A stretch of 64,000 bases of DNA from the IMG/VR virus record IMGVR_UViG_3300032213_001453; one strand, given 5' to 3'. A program made the position numbers and the translations under genes. Of the stretch, positions 478-24,398 are shown in pieces. Origin of the DNA: an uncultured virus (IMG/VR IMGVR_UViG_3300032213_001453). Taxonomy: Duplodnaviria > Heunggongvirae > Uroviricota > Caudoviricetes. Under the pieces are notes generated by a model. That model saw only the letters and a program-made list of their open reading frames with translations. It was not told where the DNA came from and made no database searches. Numbering within the stretch: the stretch's first letter is position 1; the number at the start of each line of letters is the position of its first letter.

Positions 478-841
478 CGCCTTATCCGGGCTTTTAAAAA
501 TGGGCCTTATAAGAGCTATTTTAGAATTTCAAGTTTTTTATCTTTCACTCTATTACATCACTTCTATAGTGAATGTATATAATCAAGTTATTATCTCTCA
601 TTCTAACCTAGAGATCTGAGATGAACATCTTTTCTACCCCGTCAAAACTCATTTTTTCTCAGATAGGTATGAAAGATACCTGATAGAACTTTCAGACGCT
701 TAGAAACGAAAATAGAGGCCTCTCAGGCTAACCTAGAGATCATTTCCGTCCCGTCTTTTTAGATATGATCTTATAAGACTACTTATAGAAATAAATAAAA
801 TAGATTTTAGAAAAAAACTTTCTTTTTTTATTTCCGATTAC

Positions 842-958
842 AATTATGTACTCAATTATGTACCTAAATAGGTACCTAATTATCCGGGCGCAATTCTCCG
901 CGAAAAGACAGCGGAGCGCCCGTCCTAATTATGTAGCTGATTATGTACATAATTAGGG
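842..958. repeat. AT-rich 12-bp tandem repeats flanking a GC-rich hairpin (886-921)
   Basis: AATTATGTACTC/AATTATGTACCT/AAATAGGTACCT units; hairpin GGGCG..CTCCGC..GCGGAG..CGCCC. Confidence 0.8.
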
Positions 959-1006
959 GGCTAAAAATAAATGGCCACCTAATTAGGCAGCCATTTATCT
1001 TGCTAC

Positions 1007-1561
1007 TTATGTCAGAGATTTTATGGCATCATTTGCCCAAGAGAATAAACGATCACGAAGACTTTCCATTTCTTCATAATACTTATTCTCCCCATCTTCA
1101 TCATCGAAACTCATAAGAGGATAATTACTGTCGAAGATTTCTTCCATCATAATTTCCTCCCCGTCTTTCGTGACTCTAATGCCGCAGAAACACATACCCG
1201 GTTCATCCCAAAAATGAATAAAAGTAAGTTCGGGGAACATCTCAGAAATCTTATCGTAACCAGTAAGAGGAGGATTCCACGGAGAATCAAAGGAATAAGT
1301 AATCTGCCCAGTATCTCCAAAGTTCTCTCCAGACATTTCGATGGAAGATTCTGCCCACTTTGTGCCCCAGTTATTTATGCACCATTCATACCCGCCAGAA
1401 TTGTAGCCCTCTAAAGACTCAAATTCTTTAGGCATAGGAATAAGAGTCCGAAGAAACGAATCAGTCTTTTCGGGATCATTAGCCGCTGCTCTACCCGCAA
1501 GAACTCTCAGAGTAATTGTAGGACCGTCAATGACGACTTTATTGTAGCACCAATTAGGCAT
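1007..1561 (-). CDS. DUF1281/YubB ferredoxin-like domain protein
   Basis: Motifs MPNWCxN, YEWCINNWGTKW, FDSPWNPP, DEPGMCFCG; GGAGG RBS before ATG at 1561. Confidence 0.7.
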   Translation of the reverse strand: MPNWCYNKVVIDGPTITLRVLAGRAAANDPEKTDSFLRTLIPMPKEFESLEGYNSGGYEWCINNWGTKWAESSIEMSGENFGDTGQITYSFDSPWNPPLTGYDKISEMFPELTFIHFWDEPGMCFCGIRVTKDGEEIMMEEIFDSNYPLMSFDDEDGENKYYEEMESLRDRLFSWANDAIKSLT

Positions 1562-1697
1562 TTTTATCCTCCAGTTTATCTGAACGCATAACGGCAGAAC
1601 TAACCCATTCTCCATCTGGCATTTCTAAGAAACATTGAGCGCAAACTCCACCCTCAACTTCTTCTGTATCACCACAGATTTCACAATTATCAGGCAT
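1554..1697 (-). CDS. small Cys-rich protein (47 aa, two CxxC)
   Basis: MPDNCEIC...CAQC; overlaps both neighbours in operon fashion. Confidence 0.5.
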   Translation of the reverse strand: MPDNCEICGDTEEVEGGVCAQCFLEMPDGEWVSSAVMRSDKLEDKNA

Positions 1698-1963
1698 TAT
1701 GACTCTCCCATACAAATTAGGCAGAAGTATTTCACTTCTTTATCTACAGAATGATCTAGAACATCTGAATAGCAAATCATGTGATCTTTCTCGAAATACT
1801 CTCCACAAGCATCACAAGCAACTTCACCTAGAAGAATAGTGGGATCACAATCCTCACAACTACCGTTGATCCAATCCGGCCATTCTCCGGCATCAGTTTC
1901 TCGGCCACAAGTATCGCAACTTCTAACGTCGGCTTTTACCCAATCCATTGAGTCAGGCATCAT
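1697..1963 (-). CDS. Cys-rich putative Zn-binding protein
   Basis: Four CxxC motifs. Confidence 0.55.
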   Translation of the reverse strand: MMPDSMDWVKADVRSCDTCGRETDAGEWPDWINGSCEDCDPTILLGEVACDACGEYFEKDHMICYSDVLDHSVDKEVKYFCLICMGES

Positions 1964-2180
1964 AGTTCACTTTCTTGGGGGTAGGAATAGCGGGATTCTT
2001 CTCGCTCCAATGTTCCTCAAACATTTTGACAGTTTGAGCAACTTTTCTTTCAGCAGACTCTTTCTCCATAGAAATAAGTTCTAACTGTCGCCAAACTGGA
2101 ATAATAGAAAGCAAATGACGAAACTCTTGTTCCATCTTTGTCTTTTCACCATTCGTGTATTTACCGTATTCCCAAGACAT
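1953..2180 (-). CDS. hypothetical protein
   Basis: GGAGG RBS before ATG at 2180; operonic. Confidence 0.55.
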   Translation of the reverse strand: MSWEYGKYTNGEKTKMEQEFRHLLSIIPVWRQLELISMEKESAERKVAQTVKMFEEHWSEKNPAIPTPKKVNYDA

Positions 2181-2185
2181 GATAA

Positions 2186-2401
2186 CTAAGCCTCCAAGCA
2201 TTCTTTGTGAAAGTAGCGGATAAGAAAACGGGAAAGATGATCTTTCCAAACTTCTTTAGCAACAATCGGGTAATCAAACCTGAGATGAACTACGGAATCG
2301 AAACTACTAACAAAACCTGTGCGGGGAAAGAATTCGTCACATTTATCACAAATGTACAATTCGTCTAGGTTTGTTGATTCTGTGATCTCTACCTGAAACA
2401 T
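2186..2401 (-). CDS. hypothetical protein (CxxC ... HxxC)
   Basis: ORF coupled to the upstream gene; GGAGG RBS. Confidence 0.55.
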   Translation of the reverse strand: MFQVEITESTNLDELYICDKCDEFFPRTGFVSSFDSVVHLRFDYPIVAKEVWKDHLSRFLIRYFHKECLEA

Positions 2402-2610
2402 CAGATGTAACCTCCAAGTCCAATAGATTCCAATACATCAAACGGAACATCATTGTAATCATACAATGCCATAGCACAACAACATTCCACTTCCATTTCA
2501 TCCTCAAACCAATCTCGCCACGGAGCGTCAGCGATAGAGGCAGAACTAAGCCCCAATTTGGAGATGAGACAACCATCAACTTCTGCCATGAACTTCTGAA
2601 AATCAGTCAT
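2401..2610 (-). CDS. hypothetical acidic protein
   Basis: GAAAGG RBS before ATG at 2610. Confidence 0.55.
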   Translation of the reverse strand: MTDFQKFMAEVDGCLISKLGLSSASIADAPWRDWFEDEMEVECCCAMALYDYNDVPFDVLESIGLGGYI

Positions 2611-2794
2611 TCTCAATAACCTTTCCGGGATAAATTGCGGGCATGAATTGCTCTGGATTATTACGACGATACTCATCGTAATTTCTATTCTGAAAATTAG
2701 TCCATAACATTGTCACAAACATTACGGAAATAATAGCCAGAAAGATTGCTGAAGCCTTTGTGATTGTGTTCAGTTTGTTATCCATAAATGCCAA
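2603..2794 (-). CDS. small membrane protein
   Basis: One hydrophobic helix; first gene of the leftward operon. Confidence 0.45.
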   Translation of the reverse strand: MAFMDNKLNTITKASAIFLAIISVMFVTMLWTNFQNRNYDEYRRNNPEQFMPAIYPGKVIEND

Positions 2795-2950
2795 TTTAGC
2801 CGCTGTAACCTGTCTGTGTCAAAAGTTTCTATAGGAACTTCGGTTAGACCCGGGCTTCTAAAATGGGGGCTTATAAGACCCTTTTTAGAAACTAATGTTA
2901 GTTATTGGATTAGAAATCTGAAAGACCCCTTATAAACCTAAATAGGAATA

Positions 2951-3103
2951 GAATTATGCACTAAACTATCAACCTATTTATGTACCTAATTTTACGGGCA
3001 CAAGACTCCGCCAAAGAGCAGCGGAGTGCCCGCCATAATTATGTACCTAATTATGTTCCTAATTAGGTACGTATTTATGTAGCTATTTATGTACATAACT
3101 ATG
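2951..3103. repeat. AT-rich 12-bp tandem repeats flanking a GC-rich hairpin (2995-3032)
   Basis: 3037-3096 = AATTATGTACCT AATTATGTTCCT AATTAGGTACGT ATTTATGTAGCT ATTTATGTACAT. Confidence 0.85.
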
Positions 3104-3115
3104 GGGGCAATGATG

Positions 3116-3142
3116 AAGCCCCCGCCACAGGAGCGGGGGCTT
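3116..3142 (-). terminator. probable terminator hairpin
   Basis: AAGCCCCCGC...GCGGGGGCTT downstream of 3187..3462. Confidence 0.6.
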
Positions 3143-3186
3143 ATTTATGCGCCTAGTGAGGTACCTCTCTAGGTCTTAGGTTAGGC

Positions 3187-3462
3187 TCAAACCTTCGCAG
3201 CGCGAATGCGAACCTGCGGGACTCCCGCCGTGTCGTAATCGATACGGCAGTCATCGTTCCGCACGTGTCGCCAGTGCTTGCGAATGATCTGAGACACCGC
3301 CGAGCGTGAAGCCTTCGGGACATTCCCGAAGGTCTCGCGGAGGATGATCGCCTGACCCGCCTTCACCTTTTTCAGCGAAGCCGCTAGGTCGGGGTTGATC
3401 TCCACCTTGCGCCCGCGAGGGGAAACCACCACCTCGTTAGCGTCAATGAATTCATCAGCCAT
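3187..3462 (-). CDS. small basic protein, paralogue of 4017..4289
   Basis: MADEFI..EVVVSPRGRKVEI...IRKHWRHVR...RIDYD.AGVPQVR shared; GGAGGTG RBS. Confidence 0.8.
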   Translation of the reverse strand: MADEFIDANEVVVSPRGRKVEINPDLAASLKKVKAGQAIILRETFGNVPKASRSAVSQIIRKHWRHVRNDDCRIDYDTAGVPQVRIRAAKV

Positions 3463-3490
3463 TTATGTTCACCTCCCTTCCGTTGGTGTG

Positions 3491-3506
3491 TGTTTCACGT
3501 GAAACA
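3491..3506. promoter_or_regulatory. parS: parS site (perfect consensus)
   Basis: TGTTTCACGTGAAACA, the canonical chromosomal ParB-binding palindrome. Confidence 0.85.
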
Positions 3507-3558
3507 CCGCCCCGTTCGGGCCTGCCCCGTTCGGTATGCCTTCATTATCGACCCCGAA

Positions 3559-3620
3559 CATGAACGGAAGGTAAACACAACCTTGCTTTCACCTAAAGAA
3601 AAAGCAAAAGGTAAGTGAAC
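3559..3620 (-). promoter_or_regulatory. PHO-box-like 11-bp-phased repeats upstream of a -10 element
   Basis: CATGAAC 3559, GGTAAAC 3570, AGTGAAC 3614, all in 11-bp phase. Confidence 0.5.
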
Positions 3621-3643
3621 GTCAGAACTGCCGGAAACATCGT

Positions 3644-3862
3644 TTATGCGCCAAATTATTTAGGGATTTATAAGCCCATTTATAAACCTAATTAGCGAAA
3701 TAGAAATGTACTAAATTATGTACATAATTATGTACCTAAATTGCTGGGCGTTTATGTTCCGGTAGGGCTGGAACATAAACGCCCACCTAATTATGTACCT
3801 ATTTAGGTATCCAATTAGCTGTCTATTTATGTGGCTATTTGGGTGGCTATTTATGTGCCTAT
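3644..3862. repeat. AT-rich 12-bp tandem repeats flanking a perfect hairpin (3746-3784)
   Basis: Six units at 3789-3860; hairpin GGGCGTTTATGTTCC-N9-GGAACATAAACGCCC. Confidence 0.85.
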
Positions 3863-3887
3863 TCGCAAGTTTCGGGGGGTTATGTCA

Positions 3888-3903
3888 AGTGACGGATGTC
3901 ACA
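3888..3903. promoter_or_regulatory. CRP/GlxR-type box (one mismatch)
   Basis: AGTGA-CGGATG-TCACA upstream of 4017..4289. Confidence 0.5.
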
Positions 3904-4016
3904 CATAATCGGGAAAATAATCGTTGTTTGGGGTAGACATGAGCCTGAGGTTCCGGTAGTGTTATCTACATGGAGTTGAGCAAGTCGCTCGGCTCACGAA
4001 TCAAGGAGAAGGAAAC

Positions 4017-4289
4017 ATGGCAGACGAGTTCATTAGTGCGGAAGAAGTTGTTGTTTCTCCCCGAGGCCGTAAGGTTGAGATCATGCCGGACCTAGCGGCA
4101 ACTCTCAAGAAACTGAAGGAAGGCCAAGCGATCCGCCTTTCCGAAACTTTCGGTGAAGTGTCGAAGGCTCACCGTTCGTCGGTGTCGCAGGTGATCCGTA
4201 AGCATTGGCGTCACGTCCGTGACGACGAGCCACGCATCGACTACGATCAGGCAGGCGTGCCTCAGGTTCGGGTGCGAGCCACACGATAG
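4017..4289 (+). CDS. small basic protein, paralogue of 3187..3462
   Basis: High visible similarity to 3187..3462; AAGGAG RBS. Confidence 0.8.
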   Translation: MADEFISAEEVVVSPRGRKVEIMPDLAATLKKLKEGQAIRLSETFGEVSKAHRSSVSQVIRKHWRHVRDDEPRIDYDQAGVPQVRVRATR

Positions 4290-4322
4290 CCTTTCCGCCG
4301 AGGCTATCCGGCTCCCCGATAG

Positions 4323-4354
4323 AAAGGCCCCCGGTTCCGCCACCGGGGGCCTTT
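4323..4354. terminator. intrinsic terminator (bidirectional-looking)
   Basis: AAAGGCCCCCGGT-N6-ACCGGGGGCCTTT. Confidence 0.8.
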
Positions 4355-4401
4355 CGTTTACCGGGCTATTTATTTACATTCTTATAAGGCTAGTTGGGAA
4401 C

Positions 4402-4535
4402 CTAATTATGAAAATACACGCACACTCAATTAGGCACCTAATTATGTGCCTAATTTTGCGGGTGCAAAAGTGTGCGATGAAGCTGCACACGGGCACCCGC
4501 CCTAATTATGTACCTATTTGGGAACATAATTGGGG
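4402..4535. repeat. AT-rich 12-bp repeats flanking a GC-rich hairpin (4458-4500)
   Basis: AATTAGGCACCT AATTATGTGCCT ... AATTATGTACCT; GCGGGTGC..GTGTGC..GCACAC..GCACCCGC. Confidence 0.75.
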
Positions 4536-4573
4536 GGACAATTATGAAGCCCCTCCGAAGAGGGGCCGCATAA

Positions 4574-5074
4574 TTAGAAGCCTAATTCGGTGAGGCGTCC
4601 CCATGCCCCTTCCGGCATACTTATGTACCTATCTGTGTCCCACATCATTTCGTTGAGGAGTTGGATCTCTTCGTCGATTTCGTTCTGTCGGGAGATTTCC
4701 ATCTGCTGTTCGATCCGGCGATCCCATCCAATTTGTTCGTAGCGACGTTCGTCGCTGATGAGTCCGTCTCCCATGTCGGCAAGGATGTTGAGGAGACTGA
4801 AGGCACGCTCTTCCCATTTGCCCATTTCCTCACGTTCCTGAAAGTCGATCAGTCGCCCGTTGAGAACCTGAGCGCAGTAGTGAGACTTGGCAGCCTTGAT
4901 GTGGATAACTTCCAGCACGTTCCCGTCGTCGTACATGGCGAGGGATGTGATGGGGAGAATCTCGGCGCTGTAGAACACCTTGGTGAATGTCTTCATGATG
5001 TGGCGGGCGACGATTGAGAAGTTCTCTCGCCCGACGTTTCCGATGGTGCCACCGATGAGTTCGGTACCGTACAT
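4574..5074 (-). CDS. hypothetical protein (166 aa)
   Basis: GGAGG RBS before ATG at 5074; acidic C-terminus. Confidence 0.65.
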   Translation of the reverse strand: MYGTELIGGTIGNVGRENFSIVARHIMKTFTKVFYSAEILPITSLAMYDDGNVLEVIHIKAAKSHYCAQVLNGRLIDFQEREEMGKWEERAFSLLNILADMGDGLISDERRYEQIGWDRRIEQQMEISRQNEIDEEIQLLNEMMWDTDRYISMPEGAWGRLTELGF

Positions 5075-5168
5075 AATCAGCCTCCGTGGTTGTGGGGAGC
5101 CGTTCTCCCCAACAAGTAAGACGGTATCACGGATGGGCGGTGGGCGCACATCGAAACGGGCCATTCTA

Positions 5169-5186
5169 GGTGAACTTTAGGTGAAC
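5169..5186 (-). promoter_or_regulatory. PHO-box-like direct repeat
   Basis: Minus strand reads GTTCACC-TAAA-GTTCACC (11-bp period). Confidence 0.6.
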
Positions 5187-5393
5187 AAATCTGAGCCAGA
5201 AAACTGGCCCATCCGGGGAAAATTATGTGGCTCTTATAATCTTTTTTTTGGAACATAATTAGGAATACAATTATGAACATAAAGACTCAGATAGGTATGT
5301 GGATTGGATTATATGCTAAATTATGTACATAAATAGGAACCTAAACGGCGGACGAGCAAGCGTGCGATGGAGTGGGTGGCGAGCACCCGCAAA

Positions 5394-5431
5394 AAGTTAT
5401 CCACAGGCTCCGAAGAACCTGTGGATAACTT
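5394..5431 (-). terminator. terminator hairpin built from two inverted DnaA boxes
   Basis: AAGTTATCCACAGG-N10-CCTGTGGATAACTT with a minus-strand T run; TTATCCACA at 5397, TGTGGATAA at 5420. Confidence 0.75.
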
Positions 5432-5435
5432 CTGG

Positions 5436-5801
5436 TCAGTCTACGACGATTGCGATTTCGTCAGGCCCGAACACGCCAGTCTTGACGTAGTAGGTCACTA
5501 GCCAAGTCTTGAGAGCCATGCTCTGAGTTTGTTCGTTGGTGGTGGCTCGGCCAAGGTCCGATTCCGTGGCTCGGTAGCAGTCACCCTTGGCGGAGTGATC
5601 CCGACGACGTAGGGCCGGATTCTTGACGACAGCCGGAGCCAGTCGGGGGAGTTTGTGAATCTGGCCCGAAGCGATTGCGGCTTCGATGTCTGGCCGACGG
5701 ACTCGGGCCAGAGCCAGAGCGTGATCGACTGCGGCTAGTTGGGCCTTGGTTGGTTTCTTGGTCGGAGTGGCTACCGACTTGGTGTAGAGGCTGATTGCCA
5801 T
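5436..5801 (-). CDS. basic protein, member of a 3-paralogue family
   Basis: PT(K/R)KPTKA...(R/K)VRRP(D/E)xEA...RRRD(H/Y)...D.GRA...YYV..GV shared with 6335..6709 and 7237..7605; appears leaderless. Confidence 0.8.
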   Translation of the reverse strand: MAISLYTKSVATPTKKPTKAQLAAVDHALALARVRRPDIEAAIASGQIHKLPRLAPAVVKNPALRRRDHSAKGDCYRATESDLGRATTNEQTQSMALKTWLVTYYVKTGVFGPDEIAIVVD

Positions 5802-5822
5802 AGGTGCATTATTGCGAACCTA

Positions 5823-5884
5823 AGTGAACGAATGGTGTCGTGATGGTAAACGGAAGGTAATTTGTAGGTGAACATCAGGTGAAC
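5823..5884 (-). promoter_or_regulatory. PHO-box-like array of six 11-bp units
   Basis: AGTGAAC 5823, GGTGTCG 5834, GGTAAAC 5845, GGTAATT 5856, GGTGAAC 5867, GGTGAAC 5878. Confidence 0.7.
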
Positions 5885-6031
5885 AAACTCTCCTCGTAGA
5901 TTGGCTCCTGCGGGCCTCTGAGGGTGTCGGATGATGGGTAGGTGCGGGCGATTCTGCGGGCCGTCAGAGACGATTCTAGGGGCCTCTCACGGGGAATTCA
6001 CTTTCATGCATGATTATGCAGAGGGGCATTG

Positions 6032-6047
6032 TGTGACGTTTGTCACA
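6032..6047. promoter_or_regulatory. CRP/GlxR-type box
   Basis: TGTGA-CGTTTG-TCACA, perfect consensus, intergenic. Confidence 0.6.
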
Positions 6048-6334
6048 TCAGATTTTGATTGTGTACTAAATTAGGTACATAAATACGGCGAAGAAAGCCG
6101 GACGAGCAAGCGAGCGATGGAGTTACCGGGCTGTGCGCCCGTCCCGGGCCTTCAAAATGGGTCCTTTTAATCTTTTTTTCTGAGTATAATTTGAAACATA
6201 GATTGGGACATAAATTATGTTTTCCCTGCATAGAATACGAAAATGTACTAAATCTCGGTATATTCTATCCCCGTTGTTGCAGGGCGAGCAAGCGAGCGAG
6301 GGAGTCGGGGCGGAGCACCCTCGCTCGCTGCCTG

Positions 6335-6709
6335 TCAATCGTCGTCCACCACGATGGCCAACTCATCCTCACCGATGACGCCGGTAGCGACGTAGTACGT
6401 CGTGAGCCATGTCTTCGCTGCCATGCTCATCGTCTGAGGGTTGGTGCTCGCTCGCCCCATGTCGGCAGCGGTGAGCGTGTAGGCGTGAGCGTCGGTGCGG
6501 TAGTCACGTCGGCGGCGTCCGGCGTCCTTCACTTCGGCGGCGGTGAGCGTGGTGAGTTTGTGGAATCCACCGCGAGCGATGAATGCCTCAATGTCGGGGC
6601 GACGAACCCTAGCGAGCGCTAAAGCGTGCTCAGCGGCGGCGAGCGCTGCCTTCGTGGGTTTGCGGGTCGGGGTGGCACTGCTCTTGCGGTACATTCGGAC
6701 GGTGCTCAT
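6335..6709 (-). CDS. basic protein, member of the 3-paralogue family
   Basis: Paralogy to 5436..5801; GAAAGG RBS before ATG at 6709. Confidence 0.8.
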   Translation of the reverse strand: MSTVRMYRKSSATPTRKPTKAALAAAEHALALARVRRPDIEAFIARGGFHKLTTLTAAEVKDAGRRRRDYRTDAHAYTLTAADMGRASTNPQTMSMAAKTWLTTYYVATGVIGEDELAIVVDDD

Positions 6710-6818
6710 TTGGAGCCTTTCTGTATGGGTTTTTAGGAACATACTCAACTGCTGAGGGAAATCTAGTCGGTGCTACAAGGGCGAGCAAGCGAGCGAGGGA
6801 GTCGGGGCGGAGCACCCG

Positions 6819-7085
6819 CTAGGGACGTTCCAAACCAGCGTGAGCGACTGCTATGGCCCTCAGTACGTTCATACCGGGAAAGGCTAGGAACGTAACCTCG
6901 TTGATGATTTCGCCAGCACGCTCGTTCATCCGAATGATGGAGAAAGCGACGGCCCCACTTGGGAGCCACGCGAACGGATGAAGGATGATGTCGGGGGCGT
7001 CAGAAAACCCGTAGTTCTCACCTTGCCCTACCCACTCGGCGCACGTATCGAATTCAGAAATGGAATCGGTCAGGGAGTCAAACAT
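6819..7085 (-). CDS. hypothetical protein (88 aa)
   Basis: GAAAGG RBS before ATG at 7085; fills one repeat interval. Confidence 0.65.
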   Translation of the reverse strand: MFDSLTDSISEFDTCAEWVGQGENYGFSDAPDIILHPFAWLPSGAVAFSIIRMNERAGEIINEVTFLAFPGMNVLRAIAVAHAGLERP

Positions 7086-7188
7086 AGGAACAACCTTTCG
7101 GGATAGGTACTCAACTAGGGACGATACTAGAACGGAAGATGGAGGGCGAGCAAGCGAGCGAGGGAGTCGGGTGCGGAGCACCCGCAAA

Positions 7189-7227
7189 AAGTTATCCACA
7201 GGCCCGACTGCTGCCTGTGGATAACTT
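7189..7227 (-). terminator. terminator hairpin built from two inverted DnaA boxes
   Basis: AAGTTATCCACAGG...CCTGTGGATAACTT; boxes at 7192 and 7216. Confidence 0.75.
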
Positions 7228-7236
7228 CGGTTTCGA

Positions 7237-7605
7237 TCAATCGGGATCGACAACTACGGCGAACTCATCGGCAGCGAGGACACCGGCTTCGACATAGTAG
7301 TTCATGATCCAGATTCGGAGTGCCATAGAGACGGTCTGTTCCGATGCCGTGGCCCGTCCCTTGTCACCTTCGGTGACGATGTAGGCAGATCCCTTGCCGG
7401 TGTGATCACGACGGCGACGGCCTGAATCTCGAACCTCGGCGTCGGTGAGTTCGGGGAGAGAGTGGAAGGCACCGGATCGAAGGAACGCTTCCAGTTCGGG
7501 ACGGCGAACCTTCGACAGAACTAGAAGGTAGTCGGCGTATTCCAGTATGGCCTTCGTCGGCTTGCGGGTTGGGGAAATGCTGGCCTTGCGGTAGATCCGG
7601 ATCAT
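7237..7605 (-). CDS. basic protein, member of the 3-paralogue family
   Basis: Paralogy; GAAAGGGA RBS before ATG at 7605. Confidence 0.8.
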   Translation of the reverse strand: MIRIYRKASISPTRKPTKAILEYADYLLVLSKVRRPELEAFLRSGAFHSLPELTDAEVRDSGRRRRDHTGKGSAYIVTEGDKGRATASEQTVSMALRIWIMNYYVEAGVLAADEFAVVVDPD

Positions 7606-7626
7606 GTCGATCCCTTTCGGTTGGTG

Positions 7627-7642
7627 TGTTTCACGTGAAACA
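7627..7642. promoter_or_regulatory. parS: parS site (perfect consensus)
   Basis: TGTTTCACGTGAAACA. Confidence 0.85.
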
Positions 7643-7688
7643 CTCGGACACCGGCTTGCTTGCCGATAGGTACATCGTTGCAAACCCA

Positions 7689-7739
7689 AGTGAACGGAAG
7701 GTGAACTAGGAGCGAACTGAGGGGAAAGATTAGGTGAAT
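7689..7739 (-). promoter_or_regulatory. PHO-box-like array of 11-bp units
   Basis: AGTGAAC 7689, GGTGAAC 7700, AGCGAAC 7711, GGGAAAG 7722, GGTGAAT 7733. Confidence 0.65.
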
Positions 7740-7756
7740 CATTAGGTGCATCTAGG

Positions 7757-7772
7757 TGTGACAAGCGTCACA
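7757..7772. promoter_or_regulatory. CRP/GlxR-type box
   Basis: TGTGA-CAAGCG-TCACA, perfect consensus. Confidence 0.6.
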
Positions 7773-7784
7773 CGAAATGAGGGG

Positions 7785-7932
7785 TTTTCCACAGGGGTAC
7801 CTTATGGGCTGCGGCGCAAGGGGGGTCCGATCGATCCTGAGGCGTTCTAGGGGGGTCTGAGAGGATCGGCTTTCTGGGGGTTTTCCACAGTTTCCACAGC
7901 CCTGTGGATAACTTTGCTGGGGCTGTGGATAA
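7785..7932. promoter_or_regulatory. DnaA-box cluster
   Basis: TTTTCCACA 7785 and 7881, GTTTCCACA 7890, TGTGGATAA 7903 and 7924, then a short AT-rich patch. Confidence 0.75.
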
Positions 7933-8054
7933 CTTTCTTATAAAGTATAAGATTATTCGCATACTCAATCTGGGACGGCTGCGCCACCTTCCAAGAAGGG
8001 CGAGCAAGCGAGCGAGGGATTCGGGCTGTAGGCCCGCCTGACTAGCGAATAGGA

Positions 8055-8080
8055 AAGGCCCCGCAAGATTGCGGGGCCTT
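8055..8080. terminator. terminator hairpin
   Basis: AAGGCCCCGCAA-GA-TTGCGGGGCCTT. Confidence 0.7.
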
Positions 8081-8144
8081 GTGCGGGTGATTCTGTTGCC
8101 ACGCTCCCTAGCGCCGACTCTCAGTCAGTCAGAACGAACGCCGA

Positions 8145-8318
8145 TCAGTAATCAGCATCCCAGCGCTCTCCCGCATAATCGGGATCGAAAGCGTCAGGGG
8201 CTGAATCACCGGAGAGGCTGTACGCGCATGATGCGTCGTGACAGTCCCAGCAACGTCCGCCGTTCCACAACGTGGCAACGCTGTCGCCACACTCGGAACA
8301 CGTCTGCAGAGTATCCAT
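8145..8318 (-). CDS. small Zn-finger-like acidic protein (57 aa)
   Basis: CSEC...CWDC; GGAGGTG RBS. Confidence 0.65.
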   Translation of the reverse strand: MDTLQTCSECGDSVATLWNGGRCWDCHDASCAYSLSGDSAPDAFDPDYAGERWDADY

Positions 8319-8439
8319 TTTCACCTCCCTCCGGGCCTTGGTTGGCATCATTGTAAACACACGCTCAAGGGGAACACAAGTACCTACCCAAACAGCAGGG
8401 CGAGCAAGCGAGCGAGGGAGTCGGGCAGGAGCGCCCTTC

Positions 8440-8604
8440 TTAGCCGTCGAATTCCGGCCAGTAATCCTCTCCGTGGCCGTAGGGATCAGGCTCGGACAAT
8501 TCATCCTGATCTATCTGGCCAAGACAAACAGAGCACAAACCCTGAGCGAAGATTTCGCGGGAGCAGTAGAAACAGCAGTCGATTCCACCAGTACGTTCGT
8601 TCAT
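8440..8604 (-). CDS. small Zn-finger-like acidic protein (54 aa)
   Basis: MNERTGGIDCCFYC...CSVC; AAGGAG RBS; below the ORF-track cut-off. Confidence 0.6.
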   Translation of the reverse strand: MNERTGGIDCCFYCSREIFAQGLCSVCLGQIDQDELSEPDPYGHGEDYWPEFDG

Positions 8605-8707
8605 GAGGGTTCTCCTTTATCTAGGTACTAAAGACTGAGACTAATCTAGTCCCTATTGGCAGGGCGAGCAAGCGAGCGAGGAATTCGGCCCGGAGCGCCC
8701 TTTCGGC

Positions 8708-9022
8708 TCACACGGAATCGGCTAGAGTGTTGCGAGTGCCGGGGCGGTAGAGAGCAAGTTTCTTATAGTAGTTCCCGATAACGAACGAATTCCAAGACGG
8801 CGTGAAGAATACCGTGTGAGTCACCTTGTCTTCGCAGTAGGCCACCTCATCGAATTGGAGCGAGTCGTCGGCGTTAAGCGTAACGATCACGTCTCCGATG
8901 CGAGCGTCACAAGCGCGCGCTCCCCAAACCTTCCAATAGCCGGGTTCTCCTGCCTTAAGTTCTTGCCCTTCTTGCGCTGCGAGTCGTGCCGCTGCGAGTC
9001 CGTCAAGTTGATCTATAGCCAT
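8708..9022 (-). CDS. hypothetical protein (104 aa)
   Basis: GAAGGGG RBS before ATG at 9022; TTGACA-N16-TATACT promoter upstream. Confidence 0.65.
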   Translation of the reverse strand: MAIDQLDGLAAARLAAQEGQELKAGEPGYWKVWGARACDARIGDVIVTLNADDSLQFDEVAYCEDKVTHTVFFTPSWNSFVIGNYYKKLALYRPGTRNTLADSV

Positions 9023-9164
9023 TTCGTTCCCCTTCACCGTTTGGCTGACTATTTGCCAGCTCTGTTTGTAAGTATACATCAAACCTAGAGTGTGTCAAGA
9101 ACCTAATCCGCAGGGCGAGCAAGCGAGCGAGGGGCCGGGTCGGAGCGCCCTCGCTCGCCCCTTC

Positions 9165-9380
9165 TCACTCTCCCAGTCCGCAAGCGAGGCGGAATCGTTC
9201 GGGATCGAATCGGGGGTTCTGGGTGACGAGGAAGCAGGAGAGTGACTCCACTGCTCGCCGGAATCCCTCCTCCTCCATCTCGGCGTCTCCGTGGCCCCAG
9301 TCGCCGCGATCCTCAGTGCGGATCGCGTCAACTGAGACGGCGAGCATTCGGGCCAGTTCGTTGTAGTCCTTGCGTGTCAT
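9165..9380 (-). CDS. conserved small phage protein (MTRKDY...NPRFD..RF..AC type)
   Basis: Motif pattern typical of small phage proteins; GAGGG RBS; TATAAT promoter upstream. Confidence 0.65.
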   Translation of the reverse strand: MTRKDYNELARMLAVSVDAIRTEDRGDWGHGDAEMEEEGFRRAVESLSCFLVTQNPRFDPERFRLACGLGE

Positions 9381-9519
9381 GGTTCCCTCTCTTGGGGCCA
9401 GTGGGTCCGGCTCCGTGATCATTATAAGCACACACTAAATAGAGATGCAAGTACCTACCCAATTAGCAGGGCGAGCAAGCGAGCGAGGGGCGCTGGTCGG
9501 AGCGCCAGCGCCCCTCTTC

Positions 9520-9621
9520 TCATCTCCCTCGCTTGGGATCGGTGTACCACTGCCAGAGGGCCAGCAGTGGGAAGGAGAGCCAGAACATGGCAGCGATGAC
9601 ATCACCGAGGTAGACGCGCAT
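9520..9621 (-). CDS. 33-aa membrane peptide
   Basis: MRVYLGDVIAAMFWLSFPLLALWQW...; TGATG coupling to 9621..9710. Confidence 0.45.
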   Translation of the reverse strand: MRVYLGDVIAAMFWLSFPLLALWQWYTDPKRGR

Positions 9622-9710
9622 CAGAGGCTCACAATCTTTCGGGCGATGATGTAGCCGAGGAGTAATCCCGGGGGAGTTGCTAGGGCGAGAGTGATGAGTG
9701 CGTGAATCAT
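9621..9710 (-). CDS. 29-aa membrane peptide
   Basis: MIHALITLALATPPGLLLGYIIARKIVSL; GAAAGGG RBS. Confidence 0.45.
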   Translation of the reverse strand: MIHALITLALATPPGLLLGYIIARKIVSL

Positions 9711-9848
9711 GATTCCCTTTCTGCTAGCGGGCCGTTCCCGCTATGCGGACAGTCTGACATACATTCCAGCGTGACACAAGTACCTACCTAATCGGTAGGG
9801 CGAGCAAGCGAGCGAGGGGGCTGGCCGGAGCGCCAGCCCCCTTCTCTC

Positions 9849-10124
9849 TCACTTCTGGGGGCGTGAGACGTGGACTGTGGGGAGTTCGCATCGTGAGACT
9901 GTCACGACGCCCAGAGGGCCTTCCCAGAGGGTGTGGTTTCCGTTGGTGTGGAGGCAGCGGTAGCCACCCTCTGCCAGCGAGCGATTCCATTCGATGGCAT
10001 TGTTCACGTGGGCAGGGTTGGTGTGTTCGGGGCGATCATTGATGAAGAACTCAACAACGTCGGGGTGAACGGCGTGGGCGATGTTTCCGGTGTATGGGTT
10101 GGCGATGGAGCGGTGGGTGTTCAT
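9849..10124 (-). CDS. hypothetical protein (91 aa)
   Basis: GGAGG RBS before ATG at 10124; TTGACG promoter upstream. Confidence 0.65.
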   Translation of the reverse strand: MNTHRSIANPYTGNIAHAVHPDVVEFFINDRPEHTNPAHVNNAIEWNRSLAEGGYRCLHTNGNHTLWEGPLGVVTVSRCELPTVHVSRPQK

Positions 10125-10435
10125 GGTGTGGGCCTCCGTAGGTCCGTTGTGGTTGGTATGGACATCATTGCAGATCTGACTAGGTACGTCAATACGTGCT
10201 GGCACGTATTCCATTCTGGGGGATTCTCCCCCCATTGCTGCAGGGCGAGCAAGCGAGCGATGGTGCTGGCCTGAGCGCCAGTTGTGTGTGGGTGGTTTAG
10301 GTTTTCCCAGATCGTGTAAAAACGGGGCAGCATTGTTTTGGTGTGTATTAAAGTTTTTGTGTTTTTTGGGTTGAAAAAACCCCAGTTGTTGGCTGGGGTT
10401 TTGGGGGGGTGTTGTGTTGTTTTGTGGTGTTGTGG

Positions 10436-10870
10436 TTATGTGGTTGTCCATGCGTTGAGTAGTGCTTTGGTTACCATTTCGGTGGAGAGTTCGATGTGTT
10501 CGTAGTTGCGTTCTACGAGTGCGTTTGTTTGTGTTTCGTTGTATTGGCCGTGTGAGCTTGAGTGTACGATTTCTGTGTCTACGAGTGATTGTTCGGGGGA
10601 GAGGATGACGTGGACGAGTTCGTGTACGAGTATTTTTTCGATGGTTTCGTTGTTGTGTCGGACTGCTGATGGGAGGTACCATTTGATGTTTGCGTCCATG
10701 TATTGCCATTGGGCGTGTGTGGTTGCGGTGACTTTGTGTTCTTCAAGGTCGTAGTATGTGTCTAGGTATGTGTGTTGGATGTCCCAGTGGTTGAGGCCGA
10801 GGCGGGTTTGCCAGATTGGGGCGAGTTTGTCGATGAGTTTTGTGATTCTTGTGTTGGGGTTTTCTGGCAT
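10436..10870 (-). CDS. HEXXH Zn-metallopeptidase-like protein
   Basis: LVHELVHV motif; W..RLGL..W N-terminus; TGCTATAAT promoter. Confidence 0.65.
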   Translation of the reverse strand: MPENPNTRITKLIDKLAPIWQTRLGLNHWDIQHTYLDTYYDLEEHKVTATTHAQWQYMDANIKWYLPSAVRHNNETIEKILVHELVHVILSPEQSLVDTEIVHSSSHGQYNETQTNALVERNYEHIELSTEMVTKALLNAWTTT

Positions 10871-10926
10871 GGTGTTGTCTTTCTGTGTGTGTTTATTATA
10901 GCATAGTTGTTGTGGGGGCTTTCCGG

Positions 10927-10940
10927 CGAACATTTGTTCG
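10927..10940. promoter_or_regulatory. LexA (Gram-positive/actinobacterial SOS) box
   Basis: CGAAC-ATTT-GTTCG over the -35 region of the 10436..10870 promoter. Confidence 0.6.
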
Positions 10941-10948
10941 TTTTGTTG

Positions 10949-11533
10949 TTAGGCGTGGACCTTTTGGAGCCATCGTGTCATTCTTTGGAGGTTTTCTGTT
11001 GGGGCGTATGTGATGAATGTGCCGTCGATGGAGTCGTATTTTTGGGCTTTTGCGTAGCGTAATCTTTTTAGGCTATTAACTCTACCCATGTGGGTCCATA
11101 GACCTCTCTGGCGGGCTTCTAGGACCCAATGGGAGGCTTCTGGACCGAGCTTCCAGTCGGTGTCGCCTCCGGTGAATACCGCATCGGCGTTATCTGGAAT
11201 ATGTGTGCATCCGTTTTGTAGCACATATGCTACTTTGTAACCTAAATCTTTTACTACTTCGGACCATTGGTACCAAAGTTCGTCGGTTTCTTTGGCGTCA
11301 GCTACTACATCGGGTATTACGGCGAAAAGGCAGCCCGGTTCGTCTTGATAACGTACAAGATTCTTTTCCCAACGTGATTGTTGCCAGTTTGCTGAGAAAC
11401 ATCCGTTATCTAACGCCCATATGGCATTGGGTACGACTTTTTCTCCTGATCTTGGAGTGATCATTTGGCCAAAATGACCTTCACTTATCTGTTCTTTCAC
11501 CTCTTTAGTGCAGGCTGGCGTCAGATATAGCAT
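10949..11533 (-). CDS. TGT/DpdA-like TIM-barrel protein (putative)
   Basis: LDNGCF, PDVV, HMGRV and DSIDG motifs resemble tRNA-guanine-transglycosylase-like phage proteins. Confidence 0.45.
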   Translation of the reverse strand: MLYLTPACTKEVKEQISEGHFGQMITPRSGEKVVPNAIWALDNGCFSANWQQSRWEKNLVRYQDEPGCLFAVIPDVVADAKETDELWYQWSEVVKDLGYKVAYVLQNGCTHIPDNADAVFTGGDTDWKLGPEASHWVLEARQRGLWTHMGRVNSLKRLRYAKAQKYDSIDGTFITYAPTENLQRMTRWLQKVHA

Positions 11534-11768
11534 TTTCTTTGCTTTCTTGCTTCCATTTGATCATATTTGTGAAGTTTACTGCCCACCACATGAAGCTCAT
11601 GGCAATAAATCCGGGTTTTCCGTAGATTACGCTGTAAATAAACCAAGGAATTGAGTGGGTTAGCACGATGAGCCAGCCCCACCAGTACTTTTTGCCGATG
11701 TACCACATTCCTGTAATACCGAAAAGCTCAAAGGCAAACAGTACCCACGTCCACGATGCTTCACTCAT
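11505..11768 (-). CDS. PnuC-like small membrane protein
   Basis: Three TM helices, Trp-rich, KK.WWGW motif. Confidence 0.5.
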   Translation of the reverse strand: MSEASWTWVLFAFELFGITGMWYIGKKYWWGWLIVLTHSIPWFIYSVIYGKPGFIAMSFMWWAVNFTNMIKWKQESKENAISDASLH

Positions 11769-12409
11769 TTTTGTTTTTCGCTACTCAACTTGTATTCGTA
11801 AGCGTCAGAGTCTTCTGTGATCGATTTTGAGGCGTCTTCAACATCCCAGAGGTTTGTGTTCACCAATCGATCAATAAGATTCTCATCTATCTTAGTGGTG
11901 AAGGAAGGTTCAAACAATCTGCAGCGATTATTTGGCTGAATAGCGTAGTTACCATCGTCTCGTTGAATAATATGACCACATTTATGCTGGTCAGGGCTTT
12001 CTGAATAGCTGGTATCCAAAACATTTGCGTCAGGATTGTGCCAATCAAGCGTCATAAGGTATTTGCCACTGATTTGCTTGCCAGTTCGATCACGATAAAG
12101 CATTCTCATGTTTCTAAGGTTAGCGAACTGTGAAACAGAGACATGAGGAGAGAATGAGTTCCAAAGGACAAGATCATGCAAGTCTACTTCCGGAGAGTCT
12201 TCTCTTGAACAGAAAGCAGAAATTGGCATTCGCCACCAAACGGCTCCGTCTTCCATCAGGAAATGAAAAAGTGGACTCCGGTTCTGGACTGATGCTACTC
12301 CGAAGATAACTACTGGAAACTTCTTTTCGTGGCTGTCTTTTTGATTTCGCAGAAAGTTTCCACGAACAAAACATTCAATAGGTGGAATGTTAGCGTTTAA
12401 TTCGGGCAT
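11765..12409 (-). CDS. conserved phage hypothetical protein
   Basis: 214-aa ORF with AGGAG RBS. Confidence 0.7.
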   Translation of the reverse strand: MPELNANIPPIECFVRGNFLRNQKDSHEKKFPVVIFGVASVQNRSPLFHFLMEDGAVWWRMPISAFCSREDSPEVDLHDLVLWNSFSPHVSVSQFANLRNMRMLYRDRTGKQISGKYLMTLDWHNPDANVLDTSYSESPDQHKCGHIIQRDDGNYAIQPNNRCRLFEPSFTTKIDENLIDRLVNTNLWDVEDASKSITEDSDAYEYKLSSEKQK

Positions 12410-15582: not shown

Positions 15583-16102
15583 GTATCCATCTAAGAATTT
15601 AGATCAAGTATCTATTCCAGTATTAGAACATCTTTCTCTTCCAGAAAGAGAAGAGCTTGCTCTTGATATGAGAAAAGAATGCTGGAATGTAAATGGATTA
15701 GGTATTTCCGCAATTCAAATTAATAAGCCCTTCCAGATGTTTGGTATAATTAATCCAAATAAAAAAGATCTAATGTGGATATGTGATCCACATATTGAAT
15801 CTTATTCAGGCTTTGAAATTTTCAATGAAGGATGTCTATCTATTCCAGATTATTTTTGGCCTATTAAAAGGCCGAAATCTATTTGTATATCATATTATGA
15901 TATTTATGGGAATAAACACTGCAAGACCTTCAAGGGACTTTACGCTAGGATAGTCCAACATGAACTGGATCATTTAGATGGTATTCTCATCCCGGATTTT
16001 CTGACAGAAGAGCAGAGAGAAGAGTTCCTTCGACATTTTAAGGCAAAGTCAAAAATTTCAGAGTATAATGCTCCGGAAATAGATATGCCTTGGGATGTTT
16101 AA
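15572..16102 (+). CDS. def: peptide deformylase
   Basis: GLGISAIQI, EGCLS and QHELDH signature motifs. Confidence 0.95.
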   Translation: MIVKYPSKNLDQVSIPVLEHLSLPEREELALDMRKECWNVNGLGISAIQINKPFQMFGIINPNKKDLMWICDPHIESYSGFEIFNEGCLSIPDYFWPIKRPKSICISYYDIYGNKHCKTFKGLYARIVQHELDHLDGILIPDFLTEEQREEFLRHFKAKSKISEYNAPEIDMPWDV

Positions 16103-16166: not shown

Positions 16167-16168
16167 CT

Positions 16169-16366: not shown

Positions 16367-16380
16367 GCTATAATGACTAT

Positions 16381-24397: not shown

Positions 24398-24398
24398 G

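Follow-up and report, generated by a model that had tools for sequence, protein, structure and literature searches.

Among described systems, the closest to the locus reported here are the promoter-early stem-loops (PeSLs) of T4-type phages, in which a stem-loop, a host-type promoter, a ribosome site and a start codon precede small ORFans (as outlined in PMC2839356 and PMC4122927), and in which crossovers were mapped between the -10 box and the ribosome site or start codon (according to the account in PMC2839356). The host-takeover module of the Bacillus phage SPO1 is described, in the part of PMC6873191 considered here, as about two dozen small, early and mostly unknown genes in a terminal cluster; their promoters and ribosome sites are of the kind seen at highly expressed genes. 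In the halovirus HF2, intergenic repeats of 58 bp and 29 bp carry promoters, are conserved among related viruses, and were proposed to hold sites for a virus-encoded regulator beside the core promoter (in the portion of PMC8707807 considered here). The 64-kb stretch of DNA analysed in this study (hereafter the window) carries about a dozen small genes of unknown function in a row, and one repeat element lies in front of each of them, in agreement with the original prediction that the repeat serves as punctuation. The array appears to be a PeSL-like layout in a new form, in which an invariant 18-mer and an 8-mer are added to shuffling cassettes.

The 18-mer, GGGCGAGCAAGCGAGCGA, was found 12 times in the window (ten exact copies, one with one mismatch and one with two mismatches), always on the plus strand, and the rest of the 64 kb carries no copy; a recount thus gave the same ten exact and two variant, co-oriented repeats as had been claimed. 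The chance expectation was 0.03 copies, and 12 were reached in none of 100 shuffles. Neighbouring copies are 182-854 bp apart. In the order of the genes, which read on the minus strand, the exact copies lie at 10243..10260, 9798..9815, 9469..9486, 9113..9130, 8662..8679, 8398..8415, 7998..8015, 7144..7161, 6779..6796 and 6282..6299, followed by the copy with one mismatch (6100..6117, of the ...CGTCC type) and the one with two (5350..5367). On the gene strand, the element consists of a genome-specific flank, the 18-mer TCGCTCGCTTGCTCGCCC, 29 or 30 nt, and the 8-mer TTKAGTRY. The 18-mer can be written as TCGC TCGC TTGC TCGC CC, or as a tandem pair of TYGYTCGY units followed by CC, and varies almost only by C/T at positions 4, 12 and 16 (57 unique copies), its length and register being constant. 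It is the same in the window, in a 96.7-kb relative (G002) and in L081-type fragments, while the preceding 20-25 nt vary by genome. Some copies have up to 39 identical nucleotides in common, and flank similarity is greatest between neighbouring copies.

The 8-mers occupy positions 10206-10213, 9761-9768, 9432-9439, 9076-9083, 8625-8632 and 8361-8368 for the first six copies, and 7961-7968, 7107-7114, 6741-6748, 6245-6252, 6063-6070 and 5313-5320 for the last six (minus strand; the whole set spans 5313..10213, coordinates derived from the motif outputs). The spacing from the 18-mer is 29 nt in 11 of the 12 window copies and 30 nt in the remaining one (6779). Across 59 unique element copies drawn from the window and nine loci, the 8-mer (at least seven of eight positions) is found at +29 47 times and at +30 ten times, against a background frequency of 0.57% per position; 179 matches to the 18-mer outside arrays were followed by it in five cases, two of which are array fragments. 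The spacer has a conserved GG at its positions 10-11, and roughly every second copy has C as the final base of the 8-mer. The two-part nature of the repeat had no place in the first description of this locus.

Promoters, terminators and early expression in the array are predictions from sequence. A promoter-like pair (TTGNNN, 16-19 nt, TANNNT) was detected in 23 of the 59 elements, compared with 12 of 462 windows in cassette bodies (2.6%), one of 59 reverse complements and, for shuffles, 3.6 of 59. Relaxing the -10 raised the count to 38 of 59 (cassette bodies, 33/462 or 7.1%; reverse complements, 5/59; shuffles, 6.9), leaving 21 elements with no such pattern. A strict E. coli-type scan of positions 5200-10400 yielded three promoter-like sites, not above the 2.1 +/- 1.3 found in shuffles. 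Relative to the end of the 18-mer, the -35 starts in one of four registers, at -10, +2, +14 or +18/19. The enrichment of promoter-like pairs is in keeping with the idea that the repeat is a source of promoters, but the 18-mer itself provides the -35 in only nine of the 59 elements, the remaining pairs sitting 2, 14 or 18 nt further downstream of it. As noted before, TTGCTC stands 17-18 nt before TAGATT, TAGTAT or TAGAAT at four copies: 8662 and 6779 (17 nt, TAGATT), 7144 (18 nt, TAGTAT) and 6282. Other pairs are TTGTGT, 18 nt and TACAAT downstream of copy 8398, TTGACA, 16 nt and TATACT downstream of 9113, and TTGCAT, 18 nt and TATAAT at 9469. The promoter-like pair is followed by a leader hairpin and a ribosome site. 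In 23 copies, the 8-mer is 46-57 nt from the start codon, and 16 of these leaders carry a hairpin with z < -1.5; in short-leader copies, the ribosome site starts at least 7 nt past the 8-mer, with one exception (L081 3332), where 3 nt separate the two.

When compared with shuffles, the flank forms a strong hairpin in five of the 12 window copies (6282, 9113, 9469, 9798 and 10243), and the hairpin is weak or absent in the other seven. The fold-back proposed at 6282 and 9113 was recovered by folding (z of -2.85 and -2.95); at 6282, flank positions 6300-6330 pair with the 5' half of the 18-mer in an 11-bp stem. The values at 9469 and 9798 were -4.84 and -3.55, respectively. None of the 12 flank hairpins is followed by a U tract. 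Just before the first repeat, after the gene at 10870..10436, we recognized by eye a minus-strand hairpin followed by a T run (10370..10400), which resembles a canonical terminator; U-tract terminators thus appear to exist here, unlike the flank hairpins. L081-type flanks have no hairpin evident by eye, and a search of the element against Rfam returned no family at threshold.

Between exact copies, every interval contains, as claimed, a single minus-strand gene; these genes have a ribosome site and encode products of 91, 71, 104, 54, 57, 122, 88 and 124 aa; the exception, also foreseen, is the interval 9469-9798, with two overlapping hydrophobic peptides (9520..9710), of 29 aa (9710..9621) and 33 aa (9621..9520), joined as TGATG. 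The 91-aa gene (9849..10124) belongs to no known family; its homologues, which stand behind different promoters, are in G002 (63% identity) and L173. Another type of promoter precedes the homologues of the 71-aa gene (9165..9380) in L139 and L169, and the 104-aa gene (8708..9022) has a homologue in L081, with other sequence in its place in contigs of runs X2 and X3. Two Cys-rich products follow, 54 aa (8440..8604, homologue in L138) and 57 aa (8145..8318), the latter missing from a contig of run X4 by a joint of 8024/8041 to 8441. A family of about 122 aa, with three copies per genome, is represented by paralogues at 7237..7605 (122 aa), 6335..6709 (124 aa) and 5436..5801 (121 aa), all on the minus strand like the 88-aa gene (6819..7085). 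The first paralogue is separated from copy 7998 by a 355-nt leader with DnaA boxes. The stop codons at 6335, 6819, 8440, 8708 and 9165, singled out earlier for their closeness to the repeat, lie 22-35 nt from the 18-mer.

The relatives differ from one another at the shared parts of the element, and cassettes have been deleted, replaced, duplicated and reordered. G002 carries 20 forward and no reverse copies of the 18-mer, all within 80.8-88.0 kb, in the same place as the window array and with mostly different genes. The flanks of the two arrays are syntenic at 72% nucleotide identity, and the first (10243) and last (5350) window copies lie in contexts homologous to those of the first and last G002 copies; only two gene families of the interior are common to both. 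The order of families is B. C E F in the window, and other orders occur in metagenome fragments: E J D I A in L081,. D C in L169 and A F in L138. One promoter and leader can stand before different ORFs, and one ORF behind different promoters. Metagenome contigs from four runs showed cassette deletions and replacements that terminate at the element or within the leader; one contig had a 47-bp tandem duplication of the 18-mer and flank. The original prediction of exchangeable gene content between the repeats agrees with these data. Ten joints were listed inside the array, and of their 20 ends, counted by hand, 14 fell within -12 to +45 of a copy, a zone covering 14% of the array region, albeit the clustering arises partly by construction, because unrelated cassettes share only the element and alignments end there, and short-read contigs may be mis-joined at copies sharing up to 39 nt. 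Several true homology breaks were located in the leader or inside an ORF, away from the 18-mer. The expectation that changes in relatives would break at the repeat needs adjusting: the breaks fall at the outer edge of the flank by the stop codon, or at the leader or start codon, as often as at the 18-mer.

We favour, with somewhat better than even confidence, the reading that the element is a PeSL-like regulatory cassette boundary combined with a conserved two-part predicted protein-binding site, which would punctuate transcription and offer portable homology for shuffling. The array may represent a hyperplastic, probably immediate-early, arm of a siphovirus-like phage of ~96 kb, in which a single composite regulatory element would delimit each small gene as a cassette. 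Following the upstream stop, the GC-rich genome-specific flank, often a U-less hairpin, would act perhaps as a weak terminator or 3' end protector; then would come the invariant 18-mer, the variable spacer of 29-30 nt and the 8-mer, and a putative host-type (sigma-A-like) promoter with its -35 always between the 18-mer start and the 8-mer, in several registers. The long form would end with the leader hairpin and the ribosome site. We infer that the 18-mer and 8-mer form a joint binding site of one sequence-specific factor, of phage or host, which would bracket every array promoter and switch the whole set together, by shut-off or activation. As G002 encodes a RecA-family protein and RuvC, cassette exchange may proceed by ordinary homologous recombination on short homologies, with no dedicated recombinase.

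The comparison of layout with PeSLs, made in the original prediction, is apt in light of PMC2839356 and PMC4122927, as far as these sources describe the elements. In both systems, a composite element precedes small ORFans clustered in a hyperplastic region, and relatives differ by insertion, deletion or replacement beside elements, with crossovers inside the element, some of them in the stretch from the -10 to the start codon. The joint ends at 9009, 9019 and 9039 fall in the part of the element where PeSL crossovers were mapped, and we counted them in favour of the PeSL-like reading. The present element differs in its additional invariant 18-mer and 8-mer at fixed spacing, conserved to a degree far beyond a promoter consensus next to a promoter-like pair of varying register, and in its hairpins, which have no U tract and are strong in just five of 12 copies. 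The phage is also no T4-type myovirus: it is siphovirus-like, with a tape-measure protein and a portal nearest to those of Streptomyces siphoviruses (40-45% identity), so that 'works like' describes the relation to PeSLs better than descent. G002 encodes WhiB-like and Rpf-like domains and small HTH proteins, and on account of the former two the host is probably a high-GC actinobacterium.

Mycobacteriophage stoperators and start-associated sequences are short, asymmetric repeats with many copies in one orientation in actinophage genomes, which a phage regulator binds or which are associated with gene starts. Like them, the 18-mer is a short asymmetric sequence with many copies in one orientation; they are, however, 13-14 bp long and not two-part, and to our knowledge they have not been described as seams of cassette exchange. 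In its sequence features, the array would fit a module of the SPO1 type, whereas a shared long punctuation repeat goes unmentioned in the part of its description considered here (PMC6873191). HF2 has in common with the window long intergenic repeats with promoters (predicted ones in the window) that are conserved among relatives, but it is an archaeal virus with TATA-type promoters, and its repeats are conserved in position, with no link to cassette shuffling described in the portion of PMC8707807 considered here.

A different, and in our view rather unlikely, explanation is that the 18-mer, the spacer GG and the 8-mer are themselves a promoter, recognized by host RNA polymerase under the direction of a phage factor or of an alternative sigma, in the manner of the MotA-dependent middle promoters of T4; transcription would start ~7 nt past the 8-mer, and the sigma-A-like pairs would form a separate promoter set used earlier. 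The invariant geometry in 57 of 59 copies, the three conserved patches ~20 and 42 bp apart on one helix face, and the presence of the element in the 21 copies with no sigma-A-like pair would all fit, and a WhiB-like factor and small HTH proteins are at hand in G002. Nevertheless, the terminal C of the 8-mer in roughly half of the copies is unlike a TANNNT -10, G002 gave no match to Sigma70_r2, and we know of no actinobacterial sigma motif that fits the fixed pair. The short-leader ribosome sites respect the proposed start in all copies but L081 3332, where 3 nt leave no such room. PeSL-like elements of phage Nt-1 built on middle promoters (reported in the part of PMC4122927 considered here) would provide a precedent. 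It is improbable that the element acts instead in RNA on read-through transcripts, with the hairpin and the pyrimidine-rich 18-mer as a terminator, processing or antitermination site separating cistrons. Such a role would suit flanks that begin 22-35 nt past the stop codon in seven of ten genes and the strong hairpins with stems of differing sequence, but it sits poorly with the missing U tracts beside nearby T-run hairpins, the copies and L081-type flanks with weak or no hairpins, and the lack of an Rfam match, and the fixed 29 nt to an 8-mer upstream of the long-form start site is hard to explain.

We considered two further explanations. That the repeat is a functionless remnant of (TCGC)n microsatellite type, which tandem duplication multiplied and gene conversion homogenized, accords with its composition, with the similar flanks of neighbouring copies, as local duplication or conversion would give, and with chance 18-mer matches being common in GC-rich genomes; yet the 18-mer is identical across genomes that have drifted to 72% in their flanks and adjacent genes, never varies in length or register, and keeps its distance to the 8-mer across unrelated spacers, which makes this explanation very improbable. 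Integron attC arrays, which have reportedly been seen in phages too (PMC9892861), resemble the window array in the co-oriented layout with one gene per interval and variable content. The 47-bp duplication could likewise be taken as a trace of attC-like or HUH-type cassette capture at a recombinase site. However, attC sites are imperfect inverted repeats that share conserved core sites. The conserved part here is a direct repeat and asymmetric, its hairpins are unconserved, and promoter-like pairs and ribosome sites belong to most cassettes themselves, in contrast to mostly promoterless integron cassettes read from one promoter. Breakpoints are scattered from the flank and spacer to the leader and the beginning of the ORF. 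Searches of the 92%-complete G002 detected neither a tyrosine nor a serine recombinase (no Phage_integrase or Resolvase match), leaving the proposed integron-like mechanism unsupported, and neither recombinase families nor a Rep family were found with Pfam among the 52 ORFs of the window and 71 of 129 G002 ORFs, so that the suggested link to HUH-Rep sites likewise gained no support. We regard a recombinase site as extremely improbable.

In run X2, the read depth of array contigs was 167-178, compared with 64.9 for the adjoining 24.7-kb contig, which is only a hint that the array might lie in a terminal redundancy, as an SPO1-type module would. The ends of the G002 contig overlap by 195 bp, and the contig closes on itself.

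The 18-mer GGGCGAGCAAGCGAGCGA occurs in ten exact copies in the window, and two variant copies lie at 6100 (one mismatch) and 5350 (two mismatches). All copies are on the plus strand within 5350-10260, with none elsewhere in the 64-kb window, and only 0.03 copies are expected by chance, so that the co-oriented set of ten exact and two variant copies in the original prediction was recovered on recounting. Each interval between exact copies carries one minus-strand gene with a ribosome site (91, 71, 104, 54, 57, 122, 88 and 124 aa), apart from one that carries, in place of a single gene, a 29-aa and a 33-aa peptide with overlapping frames. This reading agrees with the earlier one of one small gene per interval and coupled peptides in one of them. 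The stop codons noted near the repeat stand on re-examination of the window genes, the TTGCTC and TAGATT-type boxes are present at the four copies claimed, and the fold-back at copies 6282 and 9113 is upheld by folding. We regard the array as a real and well-defined feature. Another interval between two copies, ~180 bp long, is devoid of ORFs and retained in all three long arrays (6120-6280 in the window, 11334-11517 in L004, a locus of the related IMG/VR virus contig G002, and 4456-4635 in the locus L081). It is AT-rich with a TTATAAG.CCC motif, and its plus strand in the window bears TATAAT as well as a hairpin followed by a T run; it may represent a small RNA or an antisense promoter.

The anatomy of the element was deduced from 59 unique copies in ten sequence sets: the window, L004, L081, L069, L128, L138, L139, L150, L169 and L173. 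The scan of metagenome contigs with the 18-mer gave at least 122 stretches, mostly single chance matches, and the metagenome loci used here are among the matches listed. Register-shifted duplicate matches, duplicate loci (L002 of L004 and L080 of L081) and simple-repeat loci (L072, L115, L154, L164 and L170) were left out, as was L142, which has two copies with different flanks and no 8-mer; the array fragments L162 and L163 lie outside the 59-copy counts. On the gene strand, the 18-mer reads TCGCTCGCTTGCTCGCCC, that is, two tandem TYGYTCGY units followed by CC. Its variation is almost wholly between C and T at positions 4, 12 and 16 (57 unique copies), and variants ending in CGTCC are located distally in all three long arrays. 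The second constant part, the 8-mer TTKAGTRY, is separated from the 18-mer by 29 nt in 47 of the 59 copies and by 30 nt in ten; the spacer sequences are unrelated and conserved solely in GG at positions 10-11. The background frequency of TTKAGTRY is 0.57% per position, and the 8-mer accompanies just 5 of 179 18-mer matches outside arrays, two of which are array fragments. The two-part element is under sequence constraint across genomes.

A promoter-like pair (TTGNNN, 16-19 nt, TANNNT) was found in 23 of the 59 elements, compared with 12 of 462 cassette-body windows, 1 of 59 reverse complements and 3.6 of 59 in shuffles; with a relaxed -10, the counts were 38/59 and 33/462 in elements and cassette bodies, respectively. 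Promoter-like pairs are thus enriched in or beside the element, in variable register. The -35 starts at -10 (inside the 18-mer, nine copies), +2, +14 or +18/19 relative to the 18-mer end, and these four registers against a constant spacing indicate a promoter-like pair that shifts position relative to an unchanging 18-mer/8-mer frame. A strict E. coli-type promoter scan of the window array returned only three sites, not above shuffles. From the 8-mer to the start codon, a long leader of 46-57 nt is present in 23 copies, containing a hairpin of variable sequence (z < -1.5 in 16 of the 23), and a short leader class measures 15-33 nt. On the other side of the element is a flank of 20-25 nt, which is similar within one genome and differs between genomes (GGGYGCTCCG..CCC in the window, ..CGTTCGTGA..CCGGC in G002 and TGTCTTTCCTGCCCCGNTCGC in the L081 type). 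It begins 22-35 nt past the stop codon in seven of ten window genes, and a strong flank hairpin was found in five of the 12 window copies (z -2.85 or lower), with a U tract in none. The 8-mer as a sigma-A -10 or -35 was rejected on its spacing and the C at its last position. To our knowledge, comparison with SigF/SigB-type, ECF, boxA and SOS-box motifs yields no fit, and Rfam gave four weak matches only, all far under their thresholds.

The cassettes turn over between relatives. G002 bears 20 copies of the 18-mer, all forward, within 80.8-88.0 kb. Both sides of the array are syntenic between the window and G002, with one block of 1690 nt at 72% identity and neighbouring proteins at 45-91%, and the first and last array copies sit in homologous contexts in both. 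The interior shares only the 91-aa gene and a family of 122-aa paralogues. The order of gene families is B. C E F. A. A. A G in the window,... B........ A. H A.. A I in G002 and E J D I A... H A. A G. in L081, and the shorter loci L169, L138 and L173 read. D C, A F and. B K, respectively; the arrays are shuffled proximally and stable distally (A. A G). The genes had been proposed to be exchangeable units, and the comparison agrees with this, with different families within syntenic flanks. In pairwise alignments, homology of a shared cassette starts at about the -35, in the leader or within the ORF and runs up to the stop codon, past which it is lost at the genome-specific flank and regained at the 18-mer. 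The expectation that breaks would fall at the repeat therefore holds in part: homology does resume at the 18-mer, but breaks also fall in the flank, the leader and the ORF. A single promoter-leader type precedes four different ORFs, and the same ORF was found behind differing promoter types.

Rearrangements were also seen in contigs from three runs of the window's probable source study and one run of another study, which were compared over 4000-12000 at 90% likeness or higher. The joints comprise two deletions (6323 to 8042 and 8024/8041 to 8441), two replacements (8437 to 9009 with 243 other letters and 8702 to 9039 with 272), three skips (8439 to 9019, 8439 to 9101 and 9816 to 10454), a 47-bp stretch of 18-mer and flank duplicated in tandem (9841 back to 9795) and a 450-bp back-joint between two copies. 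Counted by hand, 14 of the 20 ends of ten in-array joints fall between -12 and +45 relative to a copy, which amounts to 14% of the region, but such ends must pile up at the element because it is the sole sequence common to unrelated cassettes. Likewise, assembly itself breaks contigs at repeats, and copies sharing up to 39 nt could be mis-joined. The differences in gene content cannot come from alignment pile-up, assembly breaks or mis-joining. The informative joint ends are those on the unique side (9009, 9019 and 9039), all within one cassette's leader or start codon. In the run X2, depth was 167-178 over the array and the iteron region and 64.9 for the adjoining 24.7-kb contig starting at 10242; this difference could reflect a collapsed terminal repeat or a part common to several strains.

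Among databases, megablast of 5000-10500 against GenBank phages gave zero matches, and blastn of one element gave chance matches of 18-21 nt only. Of the 48 loci from a scan of genome contigs, L033 is a simple tandem repeat and the others had one match each, arguing that the 18-mer is not a host repeat family. A degenerate scan of IMG/VR found the array in G002 only. Among 36 loci collected via a conserved neighbour protein, many of them short, the 18-mer (up to four mismatches) was again found in G002 only; L183 and L182 showed no analogous array downstream, nor did the left 13 kb of Streptomyces phage Comrade contain a repeated 12-mer. The loci L183 and L185 represent more distant relatives, 69% identical on the marker protein and lacking the 18-mer; in them TTGACGGTGGTGGAAAG is present five times upstream of the marker gene (1542-5357), perhaps a promoter-linked repeat of their own.

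The array lies in a compositional island. The phage is AT-rich (35-45% GC), whereas 3000-10300 has 53-60% GC; G002 has a matching island, and independent contigs span both borders, so the island is not an assembly chimera. The 14 genes within 3187-10124 have a GC3 of 0.67, compared with 0.33-0.43 in other genes. Codons matched by the seven window tRNAs (16093-27708, all NNA-reading) make up 3.2% in these 14 genes against 11-13% in other genes, a tally with one 30-codon entry in the wrong frame, negligible for the total. Such a composition would suit genes needing expression before phage tRNAs exist, and equally genes that evade AT-rich DNA silencing or came from a foreign source, all three being speculative. 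Just upstream of the array, at 10262-10900, the plus strand has a GC skew of +0.41 and an AT skew of -0.45; the A- and C-rich coding strand spans the gene 10870..10436 (144 aa, HELVH) and its trailer. The same extreme strand bias occurs in L004 at 3500-5200, even though the genes are non-homologous.

How would such an array work? One factor may bind the 18-mer and the 8-mer together, bracketing each promoter, and, as the -35 always lies between the two, the entire set would be under the control of the bound factor. Candidates for the factor among the phage proteins are the WhiB-like protein and the 100-aa and 203-aa HTH proteins of G002, the 90-aa paralogues and the 122-aa family. Hairpins in the flank would help to end or protect the upstream message, and cassettes would be exchanged through homologous recombination between the short stretches that they share. 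The main rival to a bracketing factor is that the fixed 18-mer/8-mer pair itself serves as a promoter for a redirected polymerase. A profile for T7-type RNA polymerase (PF00940) matched nothing anywhere, the controls likewise being without a match, so that it is uninformative. The full account would be that, in an AT-rich phage with a probably GC-rich host, a compartment written in the host's codon dialect, with codons for the phage's own tRNAs nearly absent, holds the first-expressed genes in standard sockets with a two-part operator, that one factor switches the set, and that the socket is the currency in which cassettes are traded; as a whole, we consider it rather doubtful. If true, the array would be a dedicated platform for gene capture and co-regulation without a recombinase. 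Small early phage genes are a main source of host-takeover and anti-defence functions, and their acquisition and exchange are poorly understood beyond T4-type phages; the array is a sharply defined case in an uncultured, probably actinobacteria-infecting lineage. The perfectly conserved 18-mer with the fixed-spacing 8-mer at every slot makes single-factor control and the exchange seams directly testable, as is host-like composition for early expression ahead of the phage tRNAs, and the element could be a probe for the lineage's whole pool of swappable early genes in metagenomes. The interest of the array rests mainly on the two-part site and the compositional compartment.

The layout had been likened to integrons and to promoter-early stem-loops (PeSL) of T4-type phages. 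The array fails membership in the integrons on three tested features. The likeness to PeSL persists, and these are the closest known kind in layout, setting and consequences. Mapped PeSL crossovers fell in the stretch from the -10 to the ribosome site or the start codon (PMC2839356), the same part of the element as the joint ends 9009, 9019 and 9039. Unlike PeSL, the array has a long invariant two-part motif with a shifting promoter register, U-less and inconstant hairpins, and a different phage lineage. Functional parallels are SPO1's module for host takeover (PMC6873191) and the intergenic repeats of HF2 (PMC8707807).

Searches of the array proteins against Pfam, PHROGs and NCBIfam gave no family, bar one weak PHROG of unknown function. 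The ~122-aa family has three paralogues each in the window (5436-5801, 6335-6709 and 7237-7605, all minus), G002 and L081. Its sequence search gave 54 clusters, all unnamed or 'hypothetical protein', several of them on 90-97 kb contigs. The structure model is confident (pLDDT 91.7); it resembled no solved fold (best E-value of 2 by Foldseek against PDB, best Z of 3.6 in a wide VIA-align search), and Atlas gave no usable match for the family. Perfect DnaA boxes (TTATCCACA) are found at 5395-5430, 7190-7225 and 7870-7930 in the window. Two of the three 122-aa paralogues are followed by such boxes as hairpin-forming inverted pairs, and the long leaders of the family hold clusters of them; a like arrangement behind the 8-mers of these paralogues occurs in L004 and L081. 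This placement suggests that host DnaA exerts control here, or that a replication origin is present. The 12-bp palindrome TTATGTACATAA and its near variants, often in tandem at a 12-bp period, extend over 840-6082 in the window (clusters at 844-952, 2978-3098, 3716-3791, 4405-4529, 5258-5344 and 6071-6082), and 33 of 45 window matches to the 8-nt core lie below 7 kb. These clusters flank two divergent 90-aa paralogues, 78% identical (3187-3462, minus; 4017-4289, plus), with homologues in G002 and L081. Probably, this is a regulator distinct from the array, together with its operators, or else the repeats are origin iterons.

The window belongs to a tailed phage with a portal, a 1988-aa tape-measure protein, an endolysin, a ribonucleotide reductase and many glycosyltransferases, and its portal is nearest to those of ~130-kb Streptomyces phages such as Comrade (40-45% identity). 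G002 is 96,743 bp long, with a completeness rating of 92%. The 40 nt at its start are repeated at 96,548 and the 40 nt at its end at 155 (L229-L233), from which the 'linear' contig closes on itself with a 195-bp overlap, giving a genome of ~96.5 kb. G002 encodes a WhiB-like factor, an Rpf-like transglycosylase domain, RecA, RuvC, a DnaB-like helicase and a primase, a gene content from which the host is probably actinobacterial; no match to Phage_integrase, Resolvase or Sigma70_r2 was found in G002, nor any RecT. The window also carries three HNH endonuclease genes (16381-16728, 43783-44286 and 61479-61937), two of which lie within the structural and replication arm.
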